DNA of 64,000 nt from Actinomycetes bacterium (GTDB lineage Bacteria; Actinomycetota; Acidimicrobiia; IMCC26256; VFJJ01). The notes beneath the pieces were generated by a model. That model was given only the letters and a program-made list of their open reading frames with translations. It was not told the DNA's origin and made no database searches. A program made the translations under genes and the position numbers. Of the stretch, positions 2,426 to 56,311 are shown one piece after another. The stretch covers positions 21,868 to 85,867 of the forward strand of contig JANLSK010000006.1 of assembly GCA_031362415.1 (NCBI GenBank), read 5' to 3'. Each line of letters starts with the position of its first letter. Positions within the stretch are counted from its first letter, which is position 1.

Positions 2426-3223
2426 TCACTCGGTGAGGTTCCGGGGACGCGAGCGGGAGAGGTGGGCGCCGGCGTCGGCCAGGATGAGCTGACCGGTGAT
2501 GCAGCGGGCCAGGTCGGAGCAGAGGAACACCGACAGGCGGGCCAGCTCGTCGTGCTCGACCATTCGTCGCAAGGGTGTGCTGGCAACGATGTTGGCAACG
2601 TGCTCGTCGGTGAACACCGGCCGGACGGTCTCGGTGAGCGTGGTGCCCGGCGCGATGGCGTTGACCCTGATGCCGTGCGGGCCCCACTCGACGGCCATCG
2701 TCCACGTGAGGTGGTTCACGGCGTGTTTCGCCGCTGCGTACGGCTCGAGTCCAGGGGATGGACGTGTTGTCTCACCTGATGAGACATTGAGAATGACACC
2801 CCCGCGACCCTGCTCGATCATCACCCGGGCCCCGGCAATGGCGCACAACATCGTGGTGAGCACGTTCTGGTCGAGGAGATCGCGGATGTGTGCGGCGTCG
2901 ACACCCAGCAGGGGCACAGCCGAGCGCCCCGCGTGCATGCCCACGTTGTTCACGAGGATGTCGAGCCCGCCGAGCTCGTCGACGACGCCGGCCACGAGCG
3001 ACGCCACCTCCGACTCGTCGCGCACGTTGGCCGGAGCGACGATGGCCCGGAAACCCTCGGCGGTGATCTCGTCGACGACCGCTCGGGCCGGTTCGGCACG
3101 GATGTCGTTGACGGCAACGGCCGCACCGGCTCGGGCGAGCCAGAGGGCGATCTCGCGGCCGATCCCCGCGCCGGCCCCGGTGACGATCGCGGTCTTGCCC
3201 TGCAGGTCGATCTCGATGGTCAT
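2426..3223 (-). CDS. SDR family oxidoreductase
   Basis: 265 aa. Contains TGAGAGIG Rossmann motif, NNVG, and the Y-AAK catalytic motif (YAAAKHAV). Confidence 0.9.
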   Translation of the reverse strand: MTIEIDLQGKTAIVTGAGAGIGREIALWLARAGAAVAVNDIRAEPARAVVDEITAEGFRAIVAPANVRDESEVASLVAGVVDELGGLDILVNNVGMHAGRSAVPLLGVDAAHIRDLLDQNVLTTMLCAIAGARVMIEQGRGGVILNVSSGETTRPSPGLEPYAAAKHAVNHLTWTMAVEWGPHGIRVNAIAPGTTLTETVRPVFTDEHVANIVASTPLRRMVEHDELARLSVFLCSDLARCITGQLILADAGAHLSRSRPRNLTE

Positions 3224-3266
3224 CGCTGTGGAATCCCCTCGGCCGGTCTCCCGCGTGCCGACGACA

Positions 3267-4208
3267 TCACGGCTCCAGCACCACCTTGATGGCCCCCGAC
3301 GCTCGATCGGCGGCCACCCGGAACGCCTCGGACGCGTCGTCGAGCCCGAAGCGGTGCGTCACGATGGCCTGGGCGATCTCGGGCTGCTCGGCCAGCATGA
3401 TCGCGGCGTTGTCGAAATCGCGCCCACCGGCGTGGCGGCAGTACGCCATCGACTGGAGGATCGTGAGCTCCTTGATCAACGAGGTCGCTCCCGGCAGGGG
3501 CACCATGTCGAAATAGACGCCGAGGAGCACGAGACGCGCCCCCGGACGGGCCAGGTCGCAGCACGCGGCAACGGCCGAGGCCGAGCCCGCGGCGTCGACG
3601 ACCACGTCGTACTCACCGGTCGCGGCCCGTCCCACGCCGATTTTCTCGGCCGCCGCGAGCTGCACCGGATGCCGGGCAACCAGGTCGACCTCGCAGCCGA
3701 GGCGCTTCGCCGCCGCCGCGGCAAGCAGGCCGATCGACCCTCCGCCCACGATCGCCACGCGCTCGCCTCCCTGGGTTGCCGCTCGCCGGATGCCGTGCAG
3801 GGCAACGGATGCCGGTTCGCACAACGCGGCGTTGGCCACAGGAAGTGCCCGGGGCAACGGTACGAGGCAGTAGGGGTCGACCACGATCTCGTCGGCGAGG
3901 CCGCCGTCCCAGAAGATCCCGTAGTTCGTGAAGTTGCGGCAGCGGTTCGAGACTCCGAGCCGGCACTGGTCGCACGTGCGACACGGGGCGATGGGCTCGA
4001 TGGCGACGGGTGTCCCGTCGGCCAGCTCACCGCCGAACTCGTGCCCAAGCGTGTAATCGGCCGGCCCCATGGCCAGCATGTTGAGGTCGGTCCCACAGAT
4101 ACCGGTGCTGCGGATTCGTATCCTGACGCCATCGCTCCCGGGCGCAGGCTCGGGTGTCGGAACCTGTACGACCCTGACCCCCTCGAGGGTGTTGCGTACC
4201 GCTCTCAT
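3267..4208 (-). CDS. zinc-dependent alcohol dehydrogenase (MDR superfamily)
   Basis: 313 aa. Contains GICGTDLNM..GHEFGG, a structural-Zn Cys cluster CRTCDQCRLGVSNRC, and GGGSIGLLAA NAD-binding motif. A GGAGAAGGAAGG SD lies upstream. Confidence 0.9.
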   Translation of the reverse strand: MRAVRNTLEGVRVVQVPTPEPAPGSDGVRIRIRSTGICGTDLNMLAMGPADYTLGHEFGGELADGTPVAIEPIAPCRTCDQCRLGVSNRCRNFTNYGIFWDGGLADEIVVDPYCLVPLPRALPVANAALCEPASVALHGIRRAATQGGERVAIVGGGSIGLLAAAAAKRLGCEVDLVARHPVQLAAAEKIGVGRAATGEYDVVVDAAGSASAVAACCDLARPGARLVLLGVYFDMVPLPGATSLIKELTILQSMAYCRHAGGRDFDNAAIMLAEQPEIAQAIVTHRFGLDDASEAFRVAADRASGAIKVVLEP

Positions 4209-4226
4209 GGATTCCTTCCTTCTCCG

Positions 4227-4784
4227 CTACGTGGTCAGGAGCTCCAGCACCCGGTCGACGATGGCGTCGGCCCGAGCGAGGAGCAGGTCTTCGGCGGTGC
4301 CGCCCAACGGGTGCTCCATGACGGCGGTCCGGGCCCGGGGCAGGCCGAAGCTCCTGGCGACGGTCCGGGTGAGGGTCTCGAACTGGGTCGTCGTGACCAC
4401 CACGGTCGGGATCCCGCTGCATTCCAGCTCGACGAGGTCGTGGACACTCCACGACGTGCACGAGCCTCAATCGGCTGAACCGGTGAGCACGAGATCGGCA
4501 CTGGCTCGCACCGCGGCGAGCTCGCTGGGCTCGGATGGTGTCGCGGCGCCACCCCGCTTGGCCACGGTGACGCCCACGACGGCTCCCGTCCTCTCGGCGA
4601 GACGGCCGGCGATGTGCTCCATGACCAGGCGGGCGTTGGGCTTGCCATTGTCGAGCACGACGATGCGGCGGCCGGTGAGCACGGCGGGCGCGGCGGTCAA
4701 CACCGCGGGCGGGGTGCCGACGTCACCTTCGGGTGAAAGAATGCGAACCACGGGAACTCCTTTGTCCACAAGTGCTTTCGGCAC
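4227..4784 (-). CDS. UGSC-family selenoprotein (in-frame TGA at 4469..4467 read as Sec, codon 106 of 185)
   Basis: Track ORF 4467..4784 stops at a TGA, but the frame continues 79 more codons to TAG 4229..4227. The junction reads LVLTGSAD-U-GSCTSWSVHDLVELECSGIPTVVVTTTQFETLTRTVARSFGLPRARTAVMEHPLGGTAEDLLLARADAIVDRVLELLTT. The U-G-S-C motif and a SECIS-like hairpin 11 nt downstream support recoding. Confidence 0.8.
4437..4455 (-). promoter_or_regulatory. candidate bacterial SECIS hairpin for the UGSC gene
   Basis: mRNA sequence is UGA-GGCUCGUGCAC-GUCGUGGA-GUG-UCCACGAC. This is a perfect 8-bp stem with G/U in the apical loop, starting 12 nt after the UGA. Confidence 0.55.
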
Positions 4785-4802
4785 GCGACGGTCGATGGTG
4801 GG

Positions 4803-5861
4803 TCAGGGTTCGAGGGCGAGCGTGACCGACCGGGTGACACCCCACGACGGGATCACACACGAGTGCTTGCCCGCACCTCCGGCGACGAAGACCTTGACGT
4901 TGTCGGGGCTGTCGGTCATGGGCAGGAGGTGGTCGTCGGCCACGGCGTGCATCCACGGTCGCCACCGCCGGTTGGCGAACGCCTCCCTGAACATCGCCGC
5001 CGGCAGGCGGGCCCGCTCGTACAGGTAGGCCGACACGTCGGCCCGGGCCCATCCGGCCCCGGCGATGGTGGCCGCATGCTCGGGACACAGGGCCACGAAG
5101 AACTCGCCCTCGGAGATGCAGGCGTTGTTCATACCCAATGACGACATGGCCGATGCGGCCTTGTCAAGGATGCGGGCCGGCTCGTCGGATTCCATGTCGT
5201 GGAAGTTGTGCGGGTTCTCGCCGCAATGGACGGTGACGGCCGACTCGGCATCGACGCCGACGCTGCGCTGATAGCCGCCCCAGGGTGAGGAAACGACGTT
5301 CTCCCCCACGCAGAACGTGTATTTCGACGGCTGACCCTGGGTGGAGGCGTCGCCGGGACCAGGCGTGGCGCCGGCGACATGGAGCAACACCAACCGGACC
5401 GCCCGGCCCACCGTGGCGTTGGCCCGGTTGCCGGGACCGAACGCGCCGAGGCCGCCGTTGAAACCCAGCTCGTCAACCGCCCGACCGTGCACGATCGTCA
5501 ACACCGACACGGGATGCGTGGTGGCGTTGACTCCCCGCAGGTTCACCTGAGGCTGACCCAGCGCCCGGATGGCCGTCACCACCACGGGCATCCACTCGGG
5601 CCGGCATCCGGCGAGCACGGCGTTCACCGCTATGGCCCGGCGAGTGGCCTTGCCGAAGCGGGGCGCCAACACGGCGACGACCTCGTCGGGATCACGGTCG
5701 CCCGTCGCCGCGAGCATGGCGGCGACCCGGTCCTCGGTGGGCGCGACGAGCGGGAGACCGTCGCCCCATCCCCGGGCCTCGAACGCCGCGTACAAAGCCT
5801 CGGGACTCTCGATCGGGATGTCGAGGAACGCCATGTCGGGCATCTGATCGTCGGGGGCCAC
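4803..5861 (-). CDS. conserved protein of unknown function (GWGDGLP motif), directly upstream of the UGSC gene
   Basis: 352-aa ORF with non-repetitive, globular-looking sequence (ARGWGDGLPLVAPTEDRV..., NATTHPVS, VHCGENPHNFHD). Its stop is 18 nt before the UGSC start. The start could be any of M1, M7 or M10. Confidence 0.7.
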   Translation of the reverse strand: MAPDDQMPDMAFLDIPIESPEALYAAFEARGWGDGLPLVAPTEDRVAAMLAATGDRDPDEVVAVLAPRFGKATRRAIAVNAVLAGCRPEWMPVVVTAIRALGQPQVNLRGVNATTHPVSVLTIVHGRAVDELGFNGGLGAFGPGNRANATVGRAVRLVLLHVAGATPGPGDASTQGQPSKYTFCVGENVVSSPWGGYQRSVGVDAESAVTVHCGENPHNFHDMESDEPARILDKAASAMSSLGMNNACISEGEFFVALCPEHAATIAGAGWARADVSAYLYERARLPAAMFREAFANRRWRPWMHAVADDHLLPMTDSPDNVKVFVAGGAGKHSCVIPSWGVTRSVTLALEP

Positions 5862-7041: not shown

Positions 7042-8448
7042 TCAGCGCAGGCGGAGGGTGACGGGACCGGCGGTCGGATCGACGCCGGCCAACCATCCAG
7101 CGTCGATCTCCACCGGACGCGTCGGCACCAGCCGGCCGAGGCTCTGACGATCGAGCGGATGACCGTCCTGCTCCACCACGAGCCGAGCGCTCCGTACCAG
7201 GTGACCAACACGGCCCACGAGACGATGACGGGGCGGCGGTCCGAGCCCGAGCGTCACGGCGCCGGGAGCCACCCACAGCAGCGGCGAATCGCAGACGATC
7301 GGAACGGTCACGGTGGGCCAGGCCCCGCCCCGGAGATAGGCCACGACGGCCGGTGCCGACGCCCGCCCGGCCAGCGAGCACACGTCGGCGGCCTCGGCCG
7401 GATGCACCAGGTTCCCCACGGCGAAGACCCCCTCGCGAGACGTGTGGCCGCCCTGGTCGGCCAGGGGGCCACCCGACCCGGGGTCGATGGTGAGGCCGCC
7501 GACACGGGCCAACTCGTGGTCGGGGATCCAGTCGCCGCTGAACACGACCGTGTCGCAGTCGATGCGCCGAGCTCGGCCCGTGCCCATGTCGACGATCTCG
7601 ACCGCTTCGACGACACCGTGACCGCCCACCAGGGAGACCACCCGCGAGCCGGTGTGCACCGGCACGCGCCAGCGCAGCGCCGCCGCCGCCCGCACGACCG
7701 GGAACGTCTGATGGCTGCGGTGCTCGGTGACCAGAGCGACCGTCCGGCATCCGGCATGGGCGAGCGTCATCACCGCCGAGAACGACACGTGCTCGGCACC
7801 GACAACCACGGCCCGACGGCCCACCTGCGCGGCCGTCATCTCCTTCATCGCCAACTGTTGCAAGGCTCCCGTGGTCAACACGCCGCGACCGGGACGGTCG
7901 CCGGCAACGAGCCGGGCTGCCCTCGGGCGCTCGCGGCACCCCGTGGCCAACACCACCGCGGTGGCCGTGAGCTCGCTCGGGCCGTCGGCGCTCGCGATCG
8001 TGAGGCGATGGTTCCCGTGGGCCGCACCGCCGGCGTCCGCGGCCGCGACCGGTGCCGCTTCACCGGCCGCACCCGAAGCGGCGGAGAGGTGGGCGGCCGT
8101 GGCCGTGTCTGGGGTGGCGTCCACTGCGCCGCATGTGTGGGACGCCGAGCCGGCTTCCGGGGCTTCGCCGGGTTCCCAGCCGGTCACGGTGGTGGCGCAG
8201 AGGATGTCGACACCCCACTGTCGGGCCCGGGCCACCAACGTCGACGCGTAGCGCGGGCCGCTCATCACCCGGTGGAGGTCGCGCAGCCCGAATCCGGTGT
8301 GGTCGCTGTGGCGCGGCGTGCCGCCAGCCTCGCGCTCGCGTTCGAGCACCGCGACCCGTCCCGCCCCCTGTTGGCGCAAGGCGGTTGCCGCAGCCAGACC
8401 CGCCGGCCCGCCACCGATCACGACAACGTCGAAGGTCGGGCTGCTCAC
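7042..8448 (-). CDS. NAD(P)/FAD-dependent oxidoreductase (pyridine nucleotide-disulfide oxidoreductase fold)
   Basis: FDVVVIGGGPAGLAAA dinucleotide motif right after GTG 8448..8446. A second Rossmann motif is RRAVVVGAEHVSFSA. The GTGA overlap with the upstream gene's stop sets the start. The longer track ORF N-terminus is Arg/Pro-rich junk. Confidence 0.8.
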   Translation of the reverse strand: MSSPTFDVVVIGGGPAGLAAATALRQQGAGRVAVLEREREAGGTPRHSDHTGFGLRDLHRVMSGPRYASTLVARARQWGVDILCATTVTGWEPGEAPEAGSASHTCGAVDATPDTATAAHLSAASGAAGEAAPVAAADAGGAAHGNHRLTIASADGPSELTATAVVLATGCRERPRAARLVAGDRPGRGVLTTGALQQLAMKEMTAAQVGRRAVVVGAEHVSFSAVMTLAHAGCRTVALVTEHRSHQTFPVVRAAAALRWRVPVHTGSRVVSLVGGHGVVEAVEIVDMGTGRARRIDCDTVVFSGDWIPDHELARVGGLTIDPGSGGPLADQGGHTSREGVFAVGNLVHPAEAADVCSLAGRASAPAVVAYLRGGAWPTVTVPIVCDSPLLWVAPGAVTLGLGPPPRHRLVGRVGHLVRSARLVVEQDGHPLDRQSLGRLVPTRPVEIDAGWLAGVDPTAGPVTLRLR

Positions 8449-9869
8449 CGCGATGCCCGGGCCAGGGATAGGGACGGGTCGAGGAGCGCCGTCACCTCGG
8501 CAAGACAGAAGTCGCCCTGGCATCGTCCGGCCAGGGCCCGGGTGCGCCGCCGCAGCCCGTCGAGATCGACCGGCGGGAGATCGCTGGCCAGTGCATCGAG
8601 GATCTCGCTGCGGGTCACCCGCTCGCAATGGCACATGATCGGGCCGCAGCCCGAGGCCTGGTAGCGCCGGGCTGCGGCCTCACCCAGGTTCGCCATCGTC
8701 GGCGGCGCGGCCAGCCCACCCGGGGCGCCCAGCCCACCCGGTTGCGCGGCATCGTGGAGTCCCATCTCGGCCACAAGGTGCTCGGCGATGGCCATGCTGG
8801 CGGTGAGGCCGGTTGAGCGAATGCCAGCCAGGCACGCGTACCGGCGATCGCGCTCCACTGTGATCTGGTAGTCACCAAGCTCGGTCACGGCTCGCAGCCC
8901 GGCGTCGGTGGCAGTGATCTCCTCGTGCGCCAAGGCCGGGAGGATACGTCGGGCCTCGGCCACCAGCGCTGCCAGACCACACTCGGTCGTCGAGCGATCG
9001 TCGTTGTCGGTGAGATCCTCGGCCGTCGGACCCACCATCACGTTGCCGAACACCGTCGGGCTCACCAGCACGCCCGTGGTCACGGCCGTCGGCACGGGGA
9101 GCACGATGTGGCGCAGAAGTGGACGGGCGAGCTTGTCGTACACGACCAGCTCGCCCCGCCGGGGCGTCACCGGCAATGGCGCCGGCCCGGGAGTGACCAT
9201 CCGGTCGATCTCGTCGGCGTGCAGCCCGGCCGCGTTCACCAGCCAGTCGGTGGTGATGACACCGTGCGGGGTCTCGAGCTCCCAACCCATGTGGCCGTTG
9301 GCTCCCAGGGTGTTCACGGCCAGCACGGGCGTGGAGCGCAGAACCTGTGCCCCGTTGCTCACGGCCTCGGTGGCGAACGCGAACACCGGCGTGTACGGGT
9401 CGATGATCGCCTCGCCGGGGACCGCCAGACCCCCGAGGGCTCCGGGACCGAGGTGGGGCTCGCGTTCGAAGACCTCGGCGGTCGTCAGGGCTCGGCACGC
9501 GTGGTAGCCGTTGGCCTCGGCCCGTTCCCGGAGCGACGGGAGCCACTCGACCTGCTCGTCGTCCCACGCAACGAGCACCGCTCCGGTGCGCTCGACGGCG
9601 ATACCGGTCGCTCGCGCGTAGTCGCCGAGGAGCTCGTAGCCCCAGGCCACCAGCCGCGCCTCGAGCGTTCCCGGCGTGGTGTCGAATCCCGTGTGGAGGA
9701 TGGCCGTGTCGACCACGCTCGTACCCGACCCGATGTCGGGAGCCGCCTCGACCAGCGCCACGCGGCGCATCGTGGTGCGCGACAAGGCCCGCAGGACGGC
9801 CGTCCCCACCACGCCCCCGCCGATCACCACGGCGTCGAAGCGCTCCGTGCCCGGCCACGTCTCACCCAT
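8445..9869 (-). CDS. FAD-dependent oxidoreductase (glycerol-3-phosphate/2-hydroxyglutarate oxidase-like) with C-terminal BFD-like [2Fe-2S] domain
   Basis: MGETWPGTERFDAVVIGGGVVGTAV starts from ATG 9869. The C-terminal CHCERVTRSEILDAL...RRRTRALAGRCQGDFC is the BFD-like Cys pattern. Confidence 0.85.
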   Translation of the reverse strand: MGETWPGTERFDAVVIGGGVVGTAVLRALSRTTMRRVALVEAAPDIGSGTSVVDTAILHTGFDTTPGTLEARLVAWGYELLGDYARATGIAVERTGAVLVAWDDEQVEWLPSLRERAEANGYHACRALTTAEVFEREPHLGPGALGGLAVPGEAIIDPYTPVFAFATEAVSNGAQVLRSTPVLAVNTLGANGHMGWELETPHGVITTDWLVNAAGLHADEIDRMVTPGPAPLPVTPRRGELVVYDKLARPLLRHIVLPVPTAVTTGVLVSPTVFGNVMVGPTAEDLTDNDDRSTTECGLAALVAEARRILPALAHEEITATDAGLRAVTELGDYQITVERDRRYACLAGIRSTGLTASMAIAEHLVAEMGLHDAAQPGGLGAPGGLAAPPTMANLGEAAARRYQASGCGPIMCHCERVTRSEILDALASDLPPVDLDGLRRRTRALAGRCQGDFCLAEVTALLDPSLSLARASR

Positions 9870-9960
9870 CGACACATCATCGCGGACCCAGCCGAACCCC
9901 GCCCTGCTGGGCAGAGTCATAGGAAAGGGACGACTACAAAAGGAAAAATGGGAGAGGCGG

Positions 9961-10179
9961 ATGGCCATGCATCTCACAAGGCTTGCTCTCGTTACCAGCG
10001 CGTTGGCATTGCTCTTCGCTTGCGGTTCCGAGCCGGAGAGCGCCGCTGCGGCACGCGCCGTGGTGCTAACGCACGACACGCCACCGCCGCACGATTGGTT
10101 CCTCGGGCTGCGCATGGGCTCGGTGAGCGCCGAGGTCGCCCACCATGCGCCGTGCCCCGTCGTCGTCGTCCCCAGAGGA
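9961..10179 (+). pseudogene. chimeric ORF: lipoprotein-type signal peptide fused to the last ~25 residues of a universal stress protein
   Basis: MAMHLTRLALVTSALALLFAC(GSEP) has a lipobox-like LFAC. It is followed by GLRMGSVSAEVAHHAPCPVVVVPRG, which matches the USP C-terminal consensus (GSVS..V..HA.CPV.VV). There is no USP core. The surrounding DNA (9900..10020) is visibly more AT-rich. Confidence 0.35.
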
Positions 10180-15041: not shown

Positions 15042-16148
15042 CTATCCGACGGTGAAGGCCTGCGTCATCCCGTGGGCGAGGTGGGGTGTTCCGTCGGCGT
15101 TGGGGATGTAGCAGAACATCATGTACTCACCAGGGACGAGGTCGACGGTCAGTACCTCGTCGTCGCCAGGAAGGGCCACATACGAGCCGAAGAACGCGGC
15201 GACGGCGTCCTCGTCCTCGCTGCCGAACGCCTGCTCGGCGGTGAAGCCCTCGGCGGCCTGCAGGATCACCATGACGTGGGACAGCTCACCGTCGTTGGTC
15301 ATGGTGAACGTGGTCGGCCCCGCTGCCGGCGGGTCGAAGGCGAAGGCGAACTCCGTCGCTGACACCGCAACCTGGGCCGCCTCGGGGTCGGGCTCGGTGA
15401 TGGCCGGGTCCTGGAAGTCGCCCGGGTCCTGGGGGATGCCGCAGTGCTCGGCGTTGAAGGTATTGATGACCACGATGCGCTCGTAGGACTCTCGGACAAG
15501 GCCGAGACCAGGGTCCCCGGCAGCGATGCCCTCACGGAACGCGGCGACCACGATATCGACGTCGCCGCTGATCTCGTCGGGCGCGTTTACTTCGAGGGCG
15601 CCGAGCAGCTCCTCGGTCGGGACCGGTTCGTCTTCGATCTGCGCGGCGACGGTGCACCAGTCGGCGAACTCGGCGTCGATGTCACCCGATGCGATCTCGT
15701 CGGCCTCGTCGCCGGCCACCTCGGGCCCGCACGTCTCGATCTCGAAGGATGTGATGATCTCGAGCGCCGGCGCCACCTCGGGGTCGGCGAAGACGCTCTG
15801 TGGGTTACCGGAGTCGACGGCAGCAATGAACGCCGGCACCACGATCGCCAACTGGTCCTGGATGTCGTCGGGGGCCACCTCCTGGTAGGCGGTGAGTTGG
15901 TCGACGGTGGGGAAGTCTCCTGCGTTGAGCTCGGTGGCCAGCCTGCAGTACTCGTCGAGCTCGCCCGCACCTCCGCCCTCGGGGGCCGCCGTCCCGATCG
16001 TCGTCGCGGCCGTCGTCGTGATCGCGGCCGGGGCCACCGTGGTCGCGATCGCGGCCTGGTCGGCGGCTTCGTCATCGTCGCCGCAACCTGCGGCCGCGAG
16101 GGTGAGTGCGAGCACCGTGGCCGTGAAGTACCTGTGTCGTGTGTTCAT
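15042..16148 (-). CDS. lipoprotein with two Cys-pair repeat domains and a C-terminal cupredoxin-like domain
   Basis: ATG 16148 has SD gaaggag upstream. MNTRHRYFTATVLALTLAAAGCGDDD is a signal peptide plus lipobox-like Cys. Two ~95-aa repeats are each bounded by (Y/W)C ... (T/H)CG. The C-terminus FTMTNDGELSHVMV...MFCYIPNADGTPHLAHGM has an H/C/H/M pattern like type-1 copper sites. Confidence 0.75.
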   Translation of the reverse strand: MNTRHRYFTATVLALTLAAAGCGDDDEAADQAAIATTVAPAAITTTAATTIGTAAPEGGGAGELDEYCRLATELNAGDFPTVDQLTAYQEVAPDDIQDQLAIVVPAFIAAVDSGNPQSVFADPEVAPALEIITSFEIETCGPEVAGDEADEIASGDIDAEFADWCTVAAQIEDEPVPTEELLGALEVNAPDEISGDVDIVVAAFREGIAAGDPGLGLVRESYERIVVINTFNAEHCGIPQDPGDFQDPAITEPDPEAAQVAVSATEFAFAFDPPAAGPTTFTMTNDGELSHVMVILQAAEGFTAEQAFGSEDEDAVAAFFGSYVALPGDDEVLTVDLVPGEYMMFCYIPNADGTPHLAHGMTQAFTVG

Positions 16149-16488
16149 CGTCTCTCCTTCGTCAGTCGCATGACGACCCTCGTGCTCGGGAACTCGATGC
16201 ACAGCAGCTCGAAGTGAGTCGCTGCGACCAACGCGCACCCTGCCCGTGAAGCTCCCCGGAAACCGGGCCTGAACGACGGGGCTGCGTGCCTGTCCACATC
16301 GTCCGCTCCCCGCGCCCCGGAAGCGATCGCGTGGCAGAGGTATCTCGCTGTCCGAGCAGTAAGGCTCAGGTAACCGGATGGGCAGGCTCGTCCTCGGGCG
16401 CAGCAGTGGCGCAGCGCACCCGTCCCCCATCCGAGCACTTGTCACCAGCGACATCACAGACCGTGTCCTCGTGAACACTTCTCGGGGG

Positions 16489-19400
16489 TCAGCGGGAACA
16501 GGTCGACCGGGTGGCTTGACCGGGAAGGTATCGATCCCATTCGCCGGGAGTGAGCTCGCGTCCGGCGACCGCACAGGCTGCGGCTCGCCAATCGGCTGGA
16601 TCGAGAGACCAGATCATCGGGGCGTCGCTGCCCACATACAGCGACGCACCGTCGGGGCTGAACGCCGGGACGAAGGGTATCTCCGGACGGTCGGGCTCAG
16701 GAATGGCGGCGACGGTGACCGGGAGCGCGCCTCCCACCAGGCTGCCACCGATGGGTGCACCGGTAGCGGTGTCCCAGAGCTGGGTCGTGGCGAACTCGGT
16801 CGTCGAGGCGAGAAGTGATCCGTCGACGTTGAACGCCAGGCCCCGCACGGGATAGAGACTCTGCTCGCCGGCTGGCGCCGCCGGTTCGAGCGTGTCCGCA
16901 TCCCAGAGCTGCACGGTGCCGCCGGAAGTTCCGGTGGCGATCCGTCGACCGTCAGGCCCCCACGCGACAGCGAAGAACGGGACGTCGACGCTCTCCAGAT
17001 AACCCGCTTCGAGCGTGCGACCTTCGACGTCGATCAGACGCACGACATTGTTGTCCACAACGGCGGCGAGGCGATCGCCGTCGGGTGAGAAGGCCAGGCC
17101 TATCGCCGAGCCGCCGACGGTCGTGACGGCGTCTCCAACGGGTTCGAGCGTGACCGCGTCGAGGAAGATGATGTCATGAGTCAGTCGGTCGCTCGCTTGA
17201 TCGGCTCCCACCGCCACCAAGGCGCCCGACGGGTCCCAGGCGACGGCTTCCACGGGATGATCGAAGCGAACCGGTCCGCCCACGGTCGTGCCGTCAGCGA
17301 CGTCGAGCACGGCCAGCCGGCCGTCCGCGCCACCGAGGGCGATCCGGGTGCCGGTCGCATCGAGGGCCGCGGTCCAGATCGGCTCCCCGGTCTCGACGTG
17401 CCAGCGCGTCGTATCGGTACCGACCTCTCGCGCCGTCACCGATCCGTCGAAGGAAGCGGTCAGGATGGTTTCGCCGTCAGGCAGTGCCATCACGGCCACG
17501 ACCGCGTCGCTGTGGCCGGTGATCGGACGACCGAACGAACGTGAACCGTCGAGGCTCCAGACCGACCCGGTGCGGTCGCTCCCGGCGATGGCGAGGTGCG
17601 ACCCGTCGGGGCTGAACGCGACGTCGTTGACCTCACCGGCCAGCCCGGTCAACGGAGGAGCGGCGAGGCGGCCGGTGGCGCTGGCGAAGAGTCGGGTGGA
17701 GCCGAGGAACCCGCCGACGGCGATCAGGGATCCATCGGGCGAGAAGGCGATCGCCGAGGCGACGTCGCCGTCGAGGTCGAAACGCCGAATCGGCATGACC
17801 CGAGCGCTCCCGATGGCTTCCCGTGACAGTTGGGCGAGGACGACCTCCCCCAACTCGTTGCCGATGGCGAGACGCCCGCCGCCCGGGTCGTAGGCGATGG
17901 CCGTCGGGAGCGCCTCGGCGTGCAGCAACGCGCTCACGTCGACATCCATGGCAGTGGTCGTACCCGGAGCCGCATCCGGGCCGGGCACCGGACCTGGCGC
18001 CCGGGCCACGGCGCGTATCGTCAGCATCCCGTTGCTGGACACGACGACGAGGGAGGTGCCGGCAACGCCGATGGCCCAGGGTTGGTCGACAACGCGCTCG
18101 ACGGCTTCGGCGACGCCCCGGTCGATATCGACCATCTGGATCGCCGCCACCCAGTCGGGCTCCTCCGAGAACCGGGTCGCGGAGATGGGATATCCCGCAA
18201 CGGCGACATGGGTGTCGTCGATGACGATGACACGCTCAGGCAGAACACCGAGCGGCAGGCTGGCGCGCTGCTGTCGTGTCGTCACGTCCCACACCTGCAG
18301 AGTTGCCGCGGCTGATGCGAACTCGTTCTCGGTGCGCTGCTCGGCCACACCGACCACGACGACGGTGCTGCCGCTGGGCGTGAAGGCGGCGTCGAAGTCG
18401 ATCTGGAATTCCTCCCCGGTGGCCAACGGTTCGCCCGTCGGACGATAGGTAGCCGTATCCCACGTGAACGTGCCCGTCGAGTCGGATGTGGGTGCGACCA
18501 GCTTCGTGGCGTCGGGCGACCAGGCCAGCGATTCGAAGCCCGACTCCACGCCGTGGAGCTTCGCCACGAGCATCGGCTGGGCGGCCAGCGCATGCAGCAG
18601 GGCGCTGCGCGTATCGACGGTGTCGCGGCGGCGGTTCGCCTCGACAGCCAGCAACAGAGCCAGATCGGGTTGCGTGGCCGCCGCCGTCCGGGCCTCGGCA
18701 CCCAGGCGGGCGATGTCGGCGTTGGCGCTGGCGTTGTCGGCCCGGTCACGTTGGTCAGACGTCCGACCGAGCTGCACCACGGCTACGACGGCCGCCACCA
18801 TGGCGACGACCAGCGCGAACGCGACACTTACCAGTAAACGCCGCAGGCGCCGGTTGACGACCCCGGCTCGGCGGGCCTCGTCGGCGTGCGTTGCGACCGA
18901 CGCCTCGATGAACAACGTCTCGGTCACCGTCAACGAAACACGGTCGGTCAGCTCGACCGCTCCCGCGAGGCGCCCGCCACGGTAGAGCTCGGCGGGGTCG
19001 TGGCTGGCCGTGGTCCAGGCGCCGGCCGCGGCCGTGAGATGGCGGTGGCGGCGGAGATCGTCGCGTTGATCGGCGATCCAATCAGCCAGCCGGGGCCATT
19101 CCCGCAGCAACGACTCGTGCGCCGGTGCAACGGTGTGACCGTCGACGGTCACGAGGCGTGCGGCGGCGAGACGGTCGACGAGGCGATCGATCGACTCGTG
19201 CTCGCCCAGATCGCGTAGCTCGTCGAGGTCGACCCGGCGCCGGCTGTCGGCCGTGCCTTCGCCCGGCTGCACCATGCGCATGAGCACAGCGCGAACCGTC
19301 TGGCGGTCGGTGTCTCCGAGGCTCCCGAACACGGCTTCGGCCGACGTCGCGATGGCGCCGTGCACTCCGCCGGCGGCGCGATATCCGGCGACGGTCAGGG

Positions 19401-21372
19401 TCCGACCGTCGCGTCGCAACCAGGTTTCACGCATGGCCTGAGCGACGAGCGGCAACGCCCCGGGCTCGTCGCCGGCGTCGGCCAGGACCAGCTCGGCCAG
19501 CCCGGCCTCGAGCCGGAGACCGCGTCGCTCGGCGGGAACCTCGATGGCTGCTCGCAGTTGATCGGGACGCATCGGGGCGAGCAGCAGATGACGACTCGCC
19601 ACGGCGTCGGCGAAGTGGGGGAAACGGGAGAGCTCGCCCAGCGCGTCGCCCCGTAGGCCCACCACGACGCCGGCGGGGTGAGCGCACAGCCGCTCGACGA
19701 AGACCCGTCGAGCATCCTTGTCGTCGCACAAGGTGAACAGCTCCTCGAGCTGATCGACGATGACCACACCGTCCCCGAGGCGGTCCAACGCCTGGAGGGG
19801 ATGGGCGCCCGGGGTGCACACGGTGGCCCCGGGGAGGTGCGGCAACAGGCCAGCGCGCAGCAGCGAGCTCTTGCCGCTGCCCGACGCCCCCAGCACGGCC
19901 ACGACCCGTCCGGGCCCGACCAACTGGCGCAGCATGACGACGGCGTCATCCCGGCCGACGTAGACATCGGCATCTTCCGGCTCGAAGCTGGCCAGCCCGG
20001 GGTAGGGCGCTACCGCGGGATCGGGCGGAACGTCGAGCCCCGCGGCCGACACCGCGACCACGTGATCGGGCGGGCCGACACCACCCAGATGATGGGCGCC
20101 GAGGGCGACCAGGCCGATGCCATCGAGGTGCTCGGCGGCGACGAGGCCCGCCGTCGTCGCCGAGAGCAGCACCTGGCCGGCTCCGGCGAGGTCTCGAATC
20201 TCCCCGGCCCGGTTCACCGTGGTCCCGTGCCCGCCTCGCTCTCCGAGCCCGGGGTGGCCTCCAATGACCGAGAGCTCACCGGTGTGCACACCCGAGCACA
20301 CTTCGATGACCGGATCGCATGTGCCGACGAGGTCGCGGTTGATCGCAACTGCGGCCCGCACCGCCTGCGCGGCGCGGGTGAACACCGAGACCGTGGTCTC
20401 GCCGTGGGTCGCAGCGCCGATACCCCGGCCACCGTGGTGCTCGACGATGCGATCGACGATCAGGTCGTGGCGGGCCAACGCCGCCGGCATCGCCAACCCG
20501 TGCGTCTGCCACAACGTCGCGAAGCGGGAGATGCGCGTCGTGAGAATCGTCACCGTGCCCGTGGGCAACGTGTCGGGCTCACCGGCGCGCAGCATCTCCA
20601 CGAACTCGCCGACGGTCGGGGGACGGCGGCCGGGGTCGATGGCCAAGCCCCTCCGGATCGCCACTTCGAGGTGCTCGGCCCGCGCCGGCTCGATGCCGCT
20701 CCACCGGGGGAGCACCCCCGTCGGGGGCCCACCGGTGAGCAATGCGAACACCGTGGCGGCCAGCCCGTAGATGTCGGCTGCCGGCCCCGGCTCGTCACCC
20801 ACCATCAACTCCGGTGCCCGATAGCCGGGCGTACCACCTCGCTGCACGAGTCCCGGCAGCGACGACACGCCGAGGTCGACGCACACGATCCGTCCTTGCC
20901 GATCGAGCACGAGGTTGGCCGGCTTCACGTCGCAATGGACGATCGGAGGATCGTGGCGATGGAGGTGCGTCAGGGCCTCGGCGGCCTGGGCGGCCCAGCG
21001 CAGCACCGTGGACGGGGGCAGCCCGGGCGTGCCGTCGGTGGCCAACACGCGCCCGAGGTCGATGCCGTCGACCCAGTCGAGGACCACGACATGCTGGTCG
21101 TGCTCGAAGAAGTCGTCGCGCACGACCGGCAGCCCGGGGTGCGGCGCCAGCTCGAGCAACGTACGAACCTCACCCAGGACCCGCTCGGCTTCGAGCGGGT
21201 TGGCGGGGATCCGGCGGATCTTCAGGGCCACGAACCGGTCGTGGCGGGTATCGAGCGCCTTGACCACGGTCCCCTGACCGCCCCGACCCACCGTCTCGAC
21301 CACGTCGTAGCGCTGGCGTATTCGTTGCGAGCCGCCCGTTCGTTGCGAGCCGCCAGCTGGGGCCGACGGCAT
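16489..21372 (-). CDS. multidomain signalling protein (1627 aa): Ser/Thr protein kinase, degenerate class III cyclase-homology domain, STAND P-loop NTPase, TM helix, WD40 beta-propeller repeats
   Basis: Start at ATG 21372..21370 overlaps the stop of the upstream FHA-LuxR gene (ATGA). Motifs seen are GRGGQGTV..VALK, HCDVKPANLVL, DLG, YRAPE (kinase). Then GTVTILTTRISRF..GVHTGE..GTTVNRA (cyclase-like) and GASGSGKSSLLRAGL plus VVIVDQLEELF (Walker A/B). RRLLVSVAFALVVAMVAAVVAVV is the TM helix. Many AFSPDG-type WD40 blades follow. Confidence 0.9.
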   Translation of the reverse strand: MPSAPAGGSQRTGGSQRIRQRYDVVETVGRGGQGTVVKALDTRHDRFVALKIRRIPANPLEAERVLGEVRTLLELAPHPGLPVVRDDFFEHDQHVVVLDWVDGIDLGRVLATDGTPGLPPSTVLRWAAQAAEALTHLHRHDPPIVHCDVKPANLVLDRQGRIVCVDLGVSSLPGLVQRGGTPGYRAPELMVGDEPGPAADIYGLAATVFALLTGGPPTGVLPRWSGIEPARAEHLEVAIRRGLAIDPGRRPPTVGEFVEMLRAGEPDTLPTGTVTILTTRISRFATLWQTHGLAMPAALARHDLIVDRIVEHHGGRGIGAATHGETTVSVFTRAAQAVRAAVAINRDLVGTCDPVIEVCSGVHTGELSVIGGHPGLGERGGHGTTVNRAGEIRDLAGAGQVLLSATTAGLVAAEHLDGIGLVALGAHHLGGVGPPDHVVAVSAAGLDVPPDPAVAPYPGLASFEPEDADVYVGRDDAVVMLRQLVGPGRVVAVLGASGSGKSSLLRAGLLPHLPGATVCTPGAHPLQALDRLGDGVVIVDQLEELFTLCDDKDARRVFVERLCAHPAGVVVGLRGDALGELSRFPHFADAVASRHLLLAPMRPDQLRAAIEVPAERRGLRLEAGLAELVLADAGDEPGALPLVAQAMRETWLRRDGRTLTVAGYRAAGGVHGAIATSAEAVFGSLGDTDRQTVRAVLMRMVQPGEGTADSRRRVDLDELRDLGEHESIDRLVDRLAAARLVTVDGHTVAPAHESLLREWPRLADWIADQRDDLRRHRHLTAAAGAWTTASHDPAELYRGGRLAGAVELTDRVSLTVTETLFIEASVATHADEARRAGVVNRRLRRLLVSVAFALVVAMVAAVVAVVQLGRTSDQRDRADNASANADIARLGAEARTAAATQPDLALLLAVEANRRRDTVDTRSALLHALAAQPMLVAKLHGVESGFESLAWSPDATKLVAPTSDSTGTFTWDTATYRPTGEPLATGEEFQIDFDAAFTPSGSTVVVVGVAEQRTENEFASAAATLQVWDVTTRQQRASLPLGVLPERVIVIDDTHVAVAGYPISATRFSEEPDWVAAIQMVDIDRGVAEAVERVVDQPWAIGVAGTSLVVVSSNGMLTIRAVARAPGPVPGPDAAPGTTTAMDVDVSALLHAEALPTAIAYDPGGGRLAIGNELGEVVLAQLSREAIGSARVMPIRRFDLDGDVASAIAFSPDGSLIAVGGFLGSTRLFASATGRLAAPPLTGLAGEVNDVAFSPDGSHLAIAGSDRTGSVWSLDGSRSFGRPITGHSDAVVAVMALPDGETILTASFDGSVTAREVGTDTTRWHVETGEPIWTAALDATGTRIALGGADGRLAVLDVADGTTVGGPVRFDHPVEAVAWDPSGALVAVGADQASDRLTHDIIFLDAVTLEPVGDAVTTVGGSAIGLAFSPDGDRLAAVVDNNVVRLIDVEGRTLEAGYLESVDVPFFAVAWGPDGRRIATGTSGGTVQLWDADTLEPAAPAGEQSLYPVRGLAFNVDGSLLASTTEFATTQLWDTATGAPIGGSLVGGALPVTVAAIPEPDRPEIPFVPAFSPDGASLYVGSDAPMIWSLDPADWRAAACAVAGRELTPGEWDRYLPGQATRSTCSR
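16492..18660 (-). other. WD40/beta-propeller repeat region (aa ~905-1627), predicted extracytoplasmic
   Basis: Recurrent blades include SLAWSPDATKLV, AIAFSPDGSLIAVGG, DVAFSPDGSHLAIAG, GLAFSPDGDRLAAV, AVAWGPDGRRIATG...VQLWD and GLAFNVDGSLLAS...TQLWD. The tail is ACAVAGRELTPGEWDRYLP. Confidence 0.8.
18769..18837 (-). other. single predicted transmembrane helix separating the NTPase from the WD40 region
   Basis: RRLRRLLVSVAFALVVAMVAAVVAVVQLGR. A positive cluster lies on the N-terminal side and about 22 hydrophobic residues follow. Confidence 0.7.
19003..20010 (-). other. STAND-type P-loop NTPase plus winged-helix region (aa ~455-790)
   Basis: PYPGLASFEPEDADVYVGRD precedes Walker A VLGASGSGKSSLLRAGLLP. 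Walker B is VVIVDQLEELF. Downstream are LVTVDG...AHESLLREWPRL..W. Confidence 0.75.
20053..20562 (-). other. cyclase-homology domain with substituted metal-binding residues (aa ~271-440)
   Basis: GTVTILTTRISRFATLW sits where class III cyclases have vTvlFtDIvgFT, so Asp is replaced by Arg. HGETTVSVF sits where GD..ma.F is expected, so Asp is replaced by Glu. GVHTGE and G.TVNRAGEI are retained. Confidence 0.6.
20587..21309 (-). other. Hanks-type Ser/Thr kinase domain of the 1627-aa protein (aa ~22-262)
   Basis: Gly loop GRGGQGTV and VALKI lysine. The catalytic loop is HCDVKPAN (HRD replaced by HCD). DLG replaces DFG. GTPGYRAPE is present. Confidence 0.85.
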
Positions 21373-21971
21373 CAGCTGGCGCCGAGATCGGTGATGCTCA
21401 CCGCACCGGTGGCGAGTGCAGCGTTGGCGAGGCGGGAACGGCGGCGTTCCCCTCCGACCACCCTGAACTTGTCGTACAACCGTCCCAGGTGCTGCTTCAC
21501 CGCCGCGTCGCTCACGATGAGCGCAGCCGCGATCTGGCGCACCGAGGCCGGTTCGGTGAACGGGTCGCCCGACAGCAGCGGCTGGCACAGAGCGATCAGC
21601 ACGTCACGCTCGCGAGCCGTCAGCACCGGCACCTCGTCGGTCACCAGTGTCTCGGAGCCGCCCATGCTGCCCACGCCGCGCAGCACCAGACGAGCGCGTC
21701 CGAGGCGTATCTCGTCCGACGCTCGCACGACTCGGCGTACCTGCACCCGCTCGCCGTTCACGAACGTGCCGTTGCGCGACGCCAGGTCCTGCACGAACCA
21801 CGAACCGCCCAGCCACTCCAGCAGGGCGTGGACCCGCGAGACCGAGGCGTCGACGACCACGATGTCAGCCGCCGATGAGCTGCCGATGGTCGCCCGATCA
21901 GCGGGGATCGTCAGCAACTCGCGGCCTGCCCCGGTCCACAGCTCGAGATGTCCTTCCACGCGCTCCATCAT
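21372..21971 (-). CDS. FHA domain plus LuxR/GerE-type HTH transcriptional regulator
   Basis: MMERVEGHLELW... starts from ATG 21971. The FHA core is ATIGSSSAADIVVVDASVSRVHALLEW..WFVQDLASRNGTFVNGERV. The C-terminal LTARERDVLIALC...SVRQIAAALIVSDAAVKQHLGRLYDKF is a GerE HTH. Confidence 0.85.
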   Translation of the reverse strand: MMERVEGHLELWTGAGRELLTIPADRATIGSSSAADIVVVDASVSRVHALLEWLGGSWFVQDLASRNGTFVNGERVQVRRVVRASDEIRLGRARLVLRGVGSMGGSETLVTDEVPVLTARERDVLIALCQPLLSGDPFTEPASVRQIAAALIVSDAAVKQHLGRLYDKFRVVGGERRRSRLANAALATGAVSITDLGAS

Positions 21972-21988: not shown

Positions 21989-22881
21989 TCACACCCCGCA
22001 GATCTGCTCGTCGTAGGCCAGGACCCGGGCGTGATGGTCGCGAATGGCAGGATCGGTCTGCTGGACGATGGCTCGATCCTCGGGCGTGCCCTCGAGGATG
22101 AGCCGTCGGAGGTCGTAGTCGAAGGCGATCAGGACCTCGGGGCCGCGCGTTCGCAGCCACTCGGTCAACGCCTCGACATCTGCGGCGATCACCGCGGGTG
22201 CGTTGGCGGCCTGGGCGTCGAGGACCATCGTGTATCCAGGGCTCTCGATGAACGCTCTGAGCAGTGCGGGTTCGAAGGCCGAATTCACGACCGCGGCGTA
22301 CCCGTCATCGAACGCGGCCACGGTCTCGCAGTAGTCAGCCGCTGTCGGGTCGTCCGCGAAGCTCACCTCGGCGGCTCCTCCCGGACCGGTACCGCAGACC
22401 TGGCTCTCGTAGGCCAGGATGGCAGCCTGGGCGGCCTGCACGTCGGGGGGTGGCTCCAGCGCCTGTTCCGCCGGGGTGCCCTCGGATCCGATGCGCTCCA
22501 CGTCGAAGTCGTACGTCTCGAGCACCGGTGTCAGCATCGTCATGATGGTCTCGTTGTTGAGCACCCAATGCTCCCTGATGCTCGCAGGCGACTGCGCCAA
22601 TGCGGTATCGATGAACTCGAGGTACTCGGCCCAATAGGCCCTAACGCGGCCGGATTGGCCTGATCGTCACCGTCACCGTCGAGCTCGTGCACCGTCCAGA
22701 CGCGAGCGGTGTCGCAGTACGCGCTGTCGGGATCGTCGAGCAACGCGCCGGCAGCATCGTCGTCGCCCCCTCCACACGACGATATGAGCAGCGCCACCGC
22801 CAAACCCGTCACCGCCCGCTTGGTTGCTCCATGCCAGTGTTGTCTTACGAGATAGGTACGCCCGAGGCGTCGAATGGTCAT
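21989..22881 (-). pseudogene. paralogous two-repeat Cys-pair lipoprotein, interrupted by one frameshift (or an assembly indel)
   Basis: ORF 22540..22881 supplies the signal peptide and lipobox (LAVALLISSCGGGDDD) and the start of repeat 1 (SAYCDTARVW...). ORF 21989..22600, in another frame, supplies the end of repeat 1 (...AYESQVCG) and all of repeat 2 (ADYCETVAAF...AYDEQICGV). The frames can be joined near 22641..22652. Confidence 0.6.
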
Positions 22882-27024: not shown

Positions 27025-28221
27025 TCAAGCAAGCGCCATTCGGAGATCTGCGATCAGGTCGTCGATGTCCTCGATGCCGACCGAGAGCCGGATGAGCGCC
27101 GGATCCACCTCGAGGGCCGAACCGGCCACCGAAGCGTGGGTCATCCGCCCAGGATGCTCGATGAGCGACTCCACGGCCCCGAGCGACTCGGCCAGGGTGA
27201 AGATCTCGGTGCGGGCCACCGCCGCAAGCGCTGCGCTCTCCCCGGCCTTCAGGGTGAACGAGACCATCCCCCCGAAGCCCCGCATCTGACGGGCGGCGAC
27301 GGCGTGACCGGGGTGCGACGGCCGTCCCGGGTAGAACACCTCGCCCACCGCCGGATGACCAGCGAGGAACTCGGCCACCGCAGCCGCGTTGCGGCAGTGC
27401 TGTTCCATTCGGGCGGCGAGGGTCTTGACCCCGCGCAGCACCAGGTAGCAGTCGAAGGGACCGGGGACCGCGCCGGCGGCGTTCTGCAGGTAGGCGAGGC
27501 GCTCGGCGCAGGCATCGTCGTTGGTGGCCAGGAATCCGCCGACGACGTCGGAGTGCCCGCCCAGGTACTTGGTTGAGGAGTGCATGACCACGTCGGCGCC
27601 GAGGGCGAGCGGCTGCTGGAGGTAGGGTGTGGCGAAGGTGTTGTCGACGACCACCGTGGCGCCGCTTCGATGTGCCAGTGCGCTGATCGTCTCGATGTCG
27701 AGGATCCGCAGCACCGGATTGGTGGGCGTCTCCATGACGACCATGGCTGTCGGACGGTTCAGGGCGGCTTCGACGGCCGTGGGATCGCTCAGGTCGGCGA
27801 TGACGACCTCGACCCCGAGGGGGCCGTAGATCCGAGCCAGGAGCCGGTAGGTGCCGCCGTAGGCGTCGTTGGAGAGCACGACGCGATCGCCTGGCGCGAG
27901 GTCGCGGCACACGACGTCGAGCGCGGCCAAGCCCGACGCGAACGCCAAGCCGTGACGGGCGCCCTCCAGCGAGGCCACGCACCTCTCGAGGGCCTGCCGG
28001 GTCGGGTTGCCGCTGCGGGAGTACTCGAAACCCTGGTGGACGCCCACGGCTTCCTGGGCGAACGTCGACGAGAGCACGATGGGCGTGACCACCGCCCCCG
28101 TCGTGGGGTCGTGGGGTTGGCCGGCGTGGATGGCCCGGGTGGCAAACCCCTTGCCGGCGAAAGGTTCCGGGGAATCGGGCGGGCCGGTGGGCTCGGTGGG
28201 CTCGGTGTCGGCCACGATCAC
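27025..28221 (-). CDS. cystathionine gamma-lyase/gamma-synthase (Cys/Met-metabolism PLP enzyme)
   Basis: 398 aa. Contains TRAIHAGQ, YSRSGNPT and the PLP lysine motif HSSTKYLGGHSD. ATGA overlap with cbs. Confidence 0.9.
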   Translation of the reverse strand: MIVADTEPTEPTGPPDSPEPFAGKGFATRAIHAGQPHDPTTGAVVTPIVLSSTFAQEAVGVHQGFEYSRSGNPTRQALERCVASLEGARHGLAFASGLAALDVVCRDLAPGDRVVLSNDAYGGTYRLLARIYGPLGVEVVIADLSDPTAVEAALNRPTAMVVMETPTNPVLRILDIETISALAHRSGATVVVDNTFATPYLQQPLALGADVVMHSSTKYLGGHSDVVGGFLATNDDACAERLAYLQNAAGAVPGPFDCYLVLRGVKTLAARMEQHCRNAAAVAEFLAGHPAVGEVFYPGRPSHPGHAVAARQMRGFGGMVSFTLKAGESAALAAVARTEIFTLAESLGAVESLIEHPGRMTHASVAGSALEVDPALIRLSVGIEDIDDLIADLRMALA

Positions 28222-30300: not shown

Positions 30301-30303
30301 TGA

Positions 30304-52175: not shown

Positions 52176-52281
52176 CTCGTCGGGACGGGCGGTGGTCACC
52201 TGAACCACGCTACCGGGTGCCGGTCCCGGGCCCTCTGGGATTCCCGGCGCTCTCTTGCTGCCCAGCCGTAGCCTGGAGGCC

Positions 52282-56229: not shown

Positions 56230-56311
56230 CGCTCCGGGACGCTAGACCGGGCGGAGACGTGCTGCACCGCTGTGGACACCCGGGACTGATCGAGCACAGG
56301 AGAGCACCGCC

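Follow-up and report, generated by a model that had tools for sequence, protein, structure and literature searches.

The question raised by this locus is whether a TGA that ends a short open reading frame (ORF) stops translation or is read as selenocysteine (Sec). The DNA is a 64,000-nucleotide stretch from an Actinomycetes bacterium (contig JANLSK010000006.1 of GenBank assembly GCA_031362415.1); the whole stretch is called the window below, and its own numbering is used throughout. A 105-amino-acid ORF on its minus strand (4467..4784) stops at TGA 4469..4467, and the same frame remains open for 79 further codons until TAG 4229..4227. A first-pass annotation of the window, made from its letters without database searches, considered this ORF to be truncated and proposed that the TGA encodes the U of a U-G-S-C motif in a selenoprotein of the UGSC family; every coordinate that it gave for the truncated ORF and for the open codons beyond was confirmed. 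Comparison with homologous genes indicates that minus-strand 4227..4751 is very probably a Sec-encoding UGSC gene with a working selenocysteine insertion sequence (SECIS).

The in-frame TGA and the UGSC family

The peptide across the junction is ...LVLTGSAD-U-GSCTSWSVHD... (written out, ...LVLTGSAD-U-GSCTSWSVHDLVELECSGIPTVVVTTTQFETLTR). Given a C in place of U, the product of read-through matches Pfam PF24696 (UGSC) with an E value of 5.6e-43 and 147.5 bits (cut-off 25) over profile positions 2-171 of 172, and NCBIfam NF041046 ("UGSC family (seleno)protein") with an E value of 5.4e-35 and 120.6 bits over positions 2-147 of 147. The family assignment of the first-pass annotation is thus upheld by two end-to-end matches. 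A large protein collection contains 244 homologs; the best 120 of these 244 are nearly all 173-198 amino acids long and without exception contain PF24696, and NCBI gives several of them the name "UGSC family (seleno)protein". The homologs are single proteins of ~175-185 amino acids that reach past the TGA column and have Cys or Sec exactly there, which bears out what the first-pass annotation had expected of them. The SAD-U-GSC-TSW segment aligns to SAD-C-GSC-TSW, and the latter is invariant in 59 homologs. The aligned codon in 79 genome loci is TGC or TGT except in loci L006, L031 and the second L046 copy, where it is TGA; counted as distinct loci, 51 have Cys in this column (Cys forms), and TGA is present in L006, L031 and L046 and in ~110 metagenome sequences (TGA forms; these and all later counts of the two forms are among the matches listed). 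The nearest relative, L006, is the Actinomycetota metagenome-assembled genome (MAG) Bin_62_11 (89% identity), followed by Acidimicrobiia at ~57%.

The DNA beyond the TGA has the character of coding sequence. The GC content of third codon positions (GC3) in the UGSC frame rises from 0.81 ahead of the TGA to 0.95 past it, compared with 0.51-0.65 in the two alternative frames. Relative to L006, the window shows 24 synonymous and only 5 non-synonymous codon changes over the 79 codons past the TGA, with 4, 2 and 26 substitutions at codon positions 1, 2 and 3, respectively. Judged by these changes, the region past the TGA is under strong purifying selection on the protein, which neither an untranslated tail nor a pseudogene could show. 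Of the 35 genes in the window 27 end in TGA, so UGA is not reassigned genome-wide and its recoding here is local. A scan of the window for further Sec-like in-frame TGAs returned only antisense shadow frames and gene ends.

The true start of the gene is probably GTG 4751, since an AAAGGAG lies 5 nt upstream, the homologs begin there and the Pfam profile starts 3 residues further in. The first-pass annotation had used an upstream GTG and arrived at a protein of 185 amino acids with Sec at position 106; 174 amino acids with Sec at position 95 is the likelier form. For annotation, the ORF fragments 4467..4784 and 4227..4403 should be joined as one selenoprotein of 174 amino acids whose TGA is marked by a translation exception; ordinary ORF callers truncate the gene there. 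The 18 nt downstream of the TAG include GGAGAAGGAAGG (4225..4214) and are followed by ATG 4208 of the next gene. This gap and its content are as the first-pass annotation had described them, but its view that read-through alone makes sense of the operon geometry went too far; the downstream coding signature (GC3 0.95) and the purifying selection are the stronger evidence.

The first observations of a UGSC-containing protein came from Hyphomonas neptunium and ocean metagenomes (PMC1976440), and the Global Ocean Sampling (GOS) survey listed UGSC among the most abundant selenoprotein families, with 255 Sec and 21 Cys sequences and an enrichment in non-marine samples (PMC2398784). A 2026 review links the family to NF041046 and lists its function as unknown (PMC13188914). 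UGSC is an established selenoprotein family (PMC2398784, PMC5029168, PMC13188914), and the first-pass annotation had correctly described it as one of unknown function from marine selenoproteome surveys (PMC2398784, PMC1976440, PMC13188914). The window gene is a member of this already described family and is in itself unsurprising; the family has been catalogued since 2007-2008 and a curated NCBI model exists for it. With the type example, ABI76733.1 of H. neptunium, it shares the full-length hidden Markov model match, the U-G-S-C motif, the existence of Cys homologs and a SECIS directly after the UGA, and the abundance of the family in non-marine aquatic and soil metagenomes is likewise the same. 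Nothing essential sets the window gene apart from other UGSC members; its host is an uncultured high-GC actinobacterium, and the partner gene described below lies upstream rather than downstream of it or fused to it.

The hairpin after the UGA

The putative SECIS core begins 11 nt (4466..4456) past the TGA, its loop is 19 nt from the UGA, and it has an 8-bp stem, all as the first-pass annotation had read them, with coordinates (4437..4455) that proved to be right. Published criteria for a bacterial SECIS (bSECIS) call for a loop of 3-9 nt with a G in its first two positions and a stem of 4-16 bp (PMC13188914, Fig. 2), a distance of 16-37 nt from UGA to loop and a minimum free energy (MFE) of -7.5 kcal/mol or lower (PMC13188914). 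The window element, with its 3-nt G-U loop, 8 bp, 19 nt and -11.1 kcal/mol, agrees with them on all four counts. It shares with the bSECIS model (as used by bSECISearch, per PMC13188914; the prototype is Escherichia coli fdhF) the position of the hairpin within the coding sequence right after the UGA and the 3-nt G-U loop; it differs from it in being family-specific in sequence, in overlapping a highly conserved peptide and in being covered by no Rfam model. Because the stem overlaps this peptide, the element changes almost only at wobble positions.

The hairpin was compared between TGA and Cys forms of the gene. Metagenome contigs were scanned with the pattern [ST]-A-D-U-G-[ST]-C-T-[ST]-W, in which wobble bases and the whole sequence 3' of the Trp codon are unconstrained; at least 120 matches were obtained, and after deduplication 110 sites with TGA and 51 with Cys were compared. 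Of the 110 TGA forms, 105 make a stem of 7 or more contiguous bp, as do 11 of the 51 Cys forms (Fisher 3e-22); in the remaining five TGA forms a 7-bp stem carries a 5-nt loop in which both G and U occur. The loop Ser is encoded by AGT in all of 103 TGA forms and in none of 37 Cys forms, 36 of which have AGC (1e-34); AGT makes up just 3.7% of Ser codons in the window. The Thr codon that closes the stem is ACG in 106/110 TGA forms vs 26/51 Cys forms, and the codon past the loop is NTC in 108 of the 110 TGA forms and often GTG or GCG in Cys forms. All three TGA forms that have TCA at the first Ser have CAT at the His, a compensatory change of a G-C pair to A-U that is confined to TGA forms, and the 18 forms in which Asp has become Gly retain a U.G wobble pair. 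In the upper helix 98.8% of cells are paired (93 distinct sequences), compared with 34-45% in slid controls. The lower helix is paired in 63% of cells across the family, with one pair that is CG in 21 and GC in 21, and the lower SECIS stem is treated as lineage-specific because of that low figure. A neighbor-joining tree of 160 distinct UGSC cores intersperses Sec with Cys forms and requires at least 10 Sec/Cys changes, so the association of TGA with the SECIS is replicated and does not go back to one inherited event. The SECIS proposal of the first-pass annotation thus withstood its check, both by fit to the bSECIS model and by synonymous-site conservation that is specific to TGA forms. At the codon level the element can be defined as ACG-UCG-UGG-AGU-NUC-CAC-GAC, which parts Sec from Cys forms almost perfectly.

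Some Cys forms (in loci L007, L008 and L035) keep the full 8-bp stem, ~14-32 nt after the TGC or TGT, with a GCG loop (AGC codon). These stems could be fossil SECIS elements left by a recent Sec-to-Cys conversion, or a by-product of codon bias.

The TGA form is tied to Sec decoding in at least one relative. In the Myxococcales MAG L046, a TGA-form fusion of UGSC and its partner (8396..10111) is adjoined by, and divergent from, a tRNA-SeC gene (anticodon TCA, 8128..8226) and a gene for a 637-amino-acid SelB, whose best PDB matches are E. coli SelB 5lzb (5lzb_z; E 3e-54) and Aquifex SelB (2.4e-50). These genes occupy L046 6167..10111, and the motif of the fusion is U-G-A-C; elsewhere in the locus, at ~3071..4635, lies a separate pair of Cys-form UGSC and partner genes.

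By analogy with established bacterial Sec biology, from which the mechanism is taken (the RNA element itself being seen in the comparison above), the mRNA would fold from 11 nt past the UGA into the 8-bp stem with a G-U-N loop, SelB.GTP.Sec-tRNASec would bind this SECIS and bring Sec as the UGA enters the ribosomal A site, and translation would then go on for 79 codons to the TAG.

Several observations weigh against a Sec-encoding gene with a working SECIS. The energy of the hairpin is ordinary for a sequence of 69% GC (z = -1.05; 30 of 200 shuffles are equally stable); it was not used as evidence because it is not significant against shuffles, and significance is drawn from the cross-gene comparison only. 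Rfam gave no match, with gathering thresholds on the whole window or with permissive thresholds on 4300..4600. The NF041046 score of the Cys-substituted protein falls just under the curated cut-off of 125, by 4.4 bits (for the Cys homolog P0001, which is 57% identical, the score is 131.4 bits). About one fifth of the Cys-form genes also form the stem, since the peptide TSWSVHD with preferred codons nearly encodes it, and covariation is small, with four of the eight stem pairs never varying, which follows from the overlap with the conserved peptide. No selA, selB, selC or selD was found in the 64 kb window by tRNA scan or among the domains of its ~40 annotated ORFs (there is no tRNA gene of any kind within the 64 kb), but their absence says little because the window spans only that length.

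Some of these points would suit a TGA that is a true stop, whether in a pseudogene made by a TGC-to-TGA nonsense mutation or through an assembly or sequencing error, so that a fragment of 94-105 amino acids at most is produced: the window shows no Sec machinery, most of its genes end in TGA and the hairpin energy is unexceptional. An error of assembly, which the first-pass annotation had itself named as a danger, is excluded, since L006, an independent MAG, and over 100 metagenome contigs have the TGA too; its presence in an independently assembled MAG and ~110 distinct metagenome sequences also speaks against a nonsense mutation. A dead region would not keep a ratio of 24 synonymous to 5 non-synonymous changes and a GC3 of 0.95 over 79 codons, nor would a stop codon be expected to co-occur with the particular synonymous codons that build a SECIS, and we consider a true stop extremely improbable. 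It is just as hard to believe that the stem-loop is a mere by-product of the peptide T-S-W-S-V-H-D and a GC-rich codon bias, with the real SECIS, if any, elsewhere. The z-score, the invariable four of eight pairs and the stems of at least 7 bp in 11 of 51 Cys-form genes are what such a by-product would give, but the stem is present in 95% of TGA forms and 22% of Cys forms, the AGT and ACG codons and the NTC after the loop mark the TGA forms as counted above, the TCA/CAT compensation occurs in TGA forms only, these differences recur over at least 10 Sec/Cys transitions, and no alternative conserved structure was found within 51 nt past the UGA.

The UGA might also be read through as Cys or Trp by near-cognate or suppressor decoding, the hairpin being a generic stimulator. 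An organism that needed Cys at this position could use TGC, as its relatives do, and the loop G-U, the stem length and the spacing fit the SelB-type bSECIS model (PMC13188914); the L046 TGA form adjoins selC and selB, and the family is an established selenoprotein family (PMC2398784, PMC5029168, PMC13188914). Against these stand the unverified Sec machinery of the window genome and the fact that Cys functions here in most homologs, and we regard read-through without Sec as very improbable. Incorporation of Sec at the UGA of the window gene, directed by the hairpin, is the reading adopted in what follows.

Table 1. Features of the UGSC locus in the window
Feature	Position	Strand	Details
UGSC-family selenoprotein gene (very probable)	4227..4751	-	174 codons + stop; probable GTG start 4751; Sec = codon 95; TAG 4229..4227
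Alternative upstream start of the UGSC gene	GTG 4784	-	would give 185 codons
In-frame TGA	4467..4469	-	predicted Sec, the U of the U-G-S-C motif; Cys/TGA column in homologs
Ribosome-binding site of the UGSC gene	4757..4763	-	AAAGGAG, 5 nt ahead of GTG 4751; read from the sequence
Putative SECIS core	4455..4437	-	GUCGUGGA-GUG-UCCACGAC; 8 perfect pairs, loop GUG; -11.1 kcal/mol
Extended putative SECIS	4426..4466	-	with 6-bp lower stem GGCUCG/CGAGCU; MFE -21.1 kcal/mol
Partner gene	4803..5843	-	346 amino acids; ATG 5843 (alternative GTG 5861); stop TGA 4805..4803
Zinc-type medium-chain dehydrogenase, next gene	3267..4208	-	Pfam ADH_N + ADH_zinc_N; ribosome-binding site GGAGAAGGAAGG 4214..4225
Short-chain dehydrogenase (SDR), last gene of the same-strand cluster	2426..3223	-	Pfam adh_short_C2, E 1.7e-55

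The partner protein, the fold and a possible function

The gene immediately upstream of UGSC (Table 1) encodes a protein that we call the partner. It adjoins UGSC in 77 of 79 genome loci, which belong to Actinomycetota, Binatia, Sphingomonadales, Myxococcota, haloarchaea and Methanobacterium, and in 95 of the 99 informative metagenome loci of the TGA form it either lies beside UGSC or is joined to it (48 in-frame fusions after UGSC, 31 genes directly downstream and 16 directly upstream); the two are adjacent or fused in ~96% of loci. The partner is better conserved than UGSC (60-70% vs 47-59% identity). It has at least 2,974 homologs, every one of which is labelled hypothetical, and the 346-amino-acid protein gave no Pfam, NCBIfam or PDB match in single-sequence and profile searches (Pfam was run on all 67 members of the alignment). 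In 138 distinct partners D28, T36, N74, T109, R147, D165, K174, E181 and H256 are invariant, C80 and C178 are present in ~88% and C207 in 25%. A predicted structure of the partner (predicted local distance difference test score, pLDDT, 87.9) retrieves class I fumarate hydratases in a Foldseek search, with probability up to 0.98 and a template modelling (TM) score of ~0.24. A role as class I (Fe-S) fumarate hydratase or hydro-lyase was considered and rejected in view of this TM score, the lack of a conserved three-Cys site such as ligates the [4Fe-4S] cluster of these enzymes and the lack of a sequence match.

In the window the partner and UGSC are separate genes, and relatives fuse them in the opposite order. 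The partner stop (4805..4803) is in the UGSC frame, 51 nt ahead of the UGSC start, and the ribosome-binding site of UGSC lies in the spacer (within 4752..4805, minus strand). A fusion of UGSC to a domain called Unknown_1 was noted in the GOS paper of 2008 (PMC2398784), and Unknown_1 may be the partner.

The fold of UGSC was modelled with AlphaFold2 on the Cys homolog P0001 as a stand-in for the window protein. The model (pLDDT 91.8) has five beta-alpha units in a flavodoxin-like arrangement, and Cys98 of P0001 is placed between a strand (residues 90-94) and a helix (99-114), that is, after strand 3 at the N-terminus of helix 3. A helix N-terminus that immediately follows a beta-strand is the standard site of redox-active CxxC pairs. 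Foldseek matches to flavodoxin-like proteins (flavodoxin, WrbA) have query-normalised TM scores of 0.40-0.51 and those to enzyme IIB (EIIB) of the phosphotransferase system (PTS) 0.26-0.32, with probability up to 1.0. The predicted five-fold beta-alpha topology is that of flavodoxin, WrbA, the flavodoxin domain of flavodiiron proteins and PTS EIIB-cellobiose, but UGSC is only 9-17% identical to them, so the likeness is one of fold level, and its reactive residue lies after strand 3 and not in a cofactor loop. No FMN-binding motif was identified in UGSC. A thioredoxin-like fold was suggested for UGSC in 2008 (PMC2398784); the P0001 model does not favor it, as it predicts five beta-alpha units, not the beta-alpha-beta-alpha-beta-beta-alpha order of a thioredoxin, and the top 50 Foldseek matches are mostly flavodoxin-like proteins or chains with a flavodoxin fused to them and include no thioredoxins.

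Profile comparisons point to the substrate-specific selenoprotein B of the glycine, sarcosine, betaine and D-proline reductases. Among 59 UGSC members, 51 match the GrdB model TIGR01917 (best 3.8e-6), 34 match TIGR01918, 27 GrdF, 25 GrdH and 4 PrdB. The GrdB alignments of the window protein and of P0001, the members whose ranges are given, cover ~329-401 of the 431 positions in the model, presumably its Sec-bearing region. GrdB and PrdB carry a UxxC motif (PMC9312934), so UGSC shares with selenoprotein B (GrdB, GrdF, GrdH, PrdB) both the UxxC Sec motif and local similarity around the Sec. Membership of UGSC in the GrdB/PrdB family (TIGR01917, TIGR01918, PF07355) was considered and set aside, as the window protein scores 17.1 bits where the cut-off is 602.2 and matches in one region only. 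By profile similarity UGSC is a distant relative of the Sec-bearing region of GrdB/PrdB and not a member of that family. This link is not stated in the literature found that mentions the UGSC family.

Selenoprotein B acts with a second, substrate-binding polypeptide, and the pair of UGSC and partner may resemble it in this respect. UGSC would be a free-standing form of the Sec domain of protein B and the redox-active subunit of a two-component, reductase-like enzyme with the 346-amino-acid partner, the two being fused in many relatives. Sec95 and Cys98 would cycle between the selenol/thiol and the selenenylsulfide; catalysis would start with attack of the Sec on a substrate bound to the partner, go on with resolution by the nearby Cys and end with re-reduction by a cellular thiol system. 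Attack by Sec is deemed the most likely chemistry because UGSC is a distant homolog of the Sec region of protein B. This two-subunit, GrdB-like mechanism is offered tentatively, and several observations speak against it. The match of the window protein to TIGR01917 is local and weak (profile 334-401 of 431). UGSC has ~175 amino acids and lacks the N-terminal ~330 residues of GrdB, and the partner does not match a pyruvoyl-proprotein family and has no similarity to GrdE, PrdA or any known family. There is no conserved third gene (145 flanking ORFs at 37 diverse loci contain 139 Pfam families, none of them in more than 6 ORFs). No grdA, grdC, grdD or thioredoxin system gene was found linked, and no grd or prd gene is among the 25 flanking families listed for the 37 diverse loci.

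It is conceivable, though on balance we would not expect it, that UGSC and its partner form a previously unrecognised two-subunit or fused selenoenzyme, a minimal and widespread relative of the protein B components in which the partner represents a new catalytic or substrate-binding family that Pfam lacks and the Sec domain has a flavodoxin-like and not a thioredoxin fold. If this were true, a function open to experiment would be at hand for a family that ranks among the most abundant environmental selenoproteins. For a family of unknown function, the codon-level SECIS, the near-obligate partner of ~350 amino acids and the recurrent distant likeness to GrdB/PrdB should be useful in any case.

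Other genes of the window

The same-strand cluster continues past UGSC with two dehydrogenase genes (Table 1), the gaps being 18 nt from UGSC to the zinc-type dehydrogenase and 43 nt from there to the SDR. The zinc-type dehydrogenase resembles NCBIfam polyol/threonine dehydrogenases at scores below the cut-offs, and it is conserved next to UGSC only in the closest relative, L006. Homologs of the SDR (47-65% identity) come directly after UGSC in several other lineages, ~0.5-0.66 kb past the UGSC start in L014, L025, L028, L029, L031, L032 (a partial match of 77 amino acids), L033 and L038.

A homolog of the Rv2466c-like mycothiol-dependent nitroreductase (35135..35695, minus strand) suggests a mycothiol-using actinobacterium, which bears on the thiol system that might re-reduce UGSC. 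Neighboring pyridoxal phosphate enzymes at 27028..29600 (minus strand), a gamma-lyase/synthase of Cys/Met metabolism and a cystathionine beta-synthase-like protein with a CBS domain, look like a transsulfuration pair.

A molybdopterin oxidoreductase gene (52255..54450, plus strand; Fe4S4, Molybdopterin and Molydop_binding domains) has no in-frame TGA. As called, an EamA-transporter ORF (51243..53048, minus strand) overlaps it by ~800 nt, so the start of the EamA ORF was probably called too far upstream. Genes of the type used in lipid or steroid side-chain catabolism are concentrated at 29836..31515 (minus strand), 39579..42032 (plus strand) and 55027..61433; they encode ChsH2-like OB-fold and thiolase-like proteins, a double CoA-transferase III, acyl-CoA dehydrogenases and an enoyl-CoA hydratase. 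Four minus-strand ORFs (15045..16574, 21992..22600, 38521..39138 and 47729..48421) have a GC3 above 0.8 and no Pfam match at E <=1e-6. In an ORF of 1,699 amino acids (16492..21588, minus strand), a Ser/Thr protein kinase domain is found together with a STAND NTPase (nSTAND1, E 1.7e-103) and with WD40 propellers at the C-terminus.

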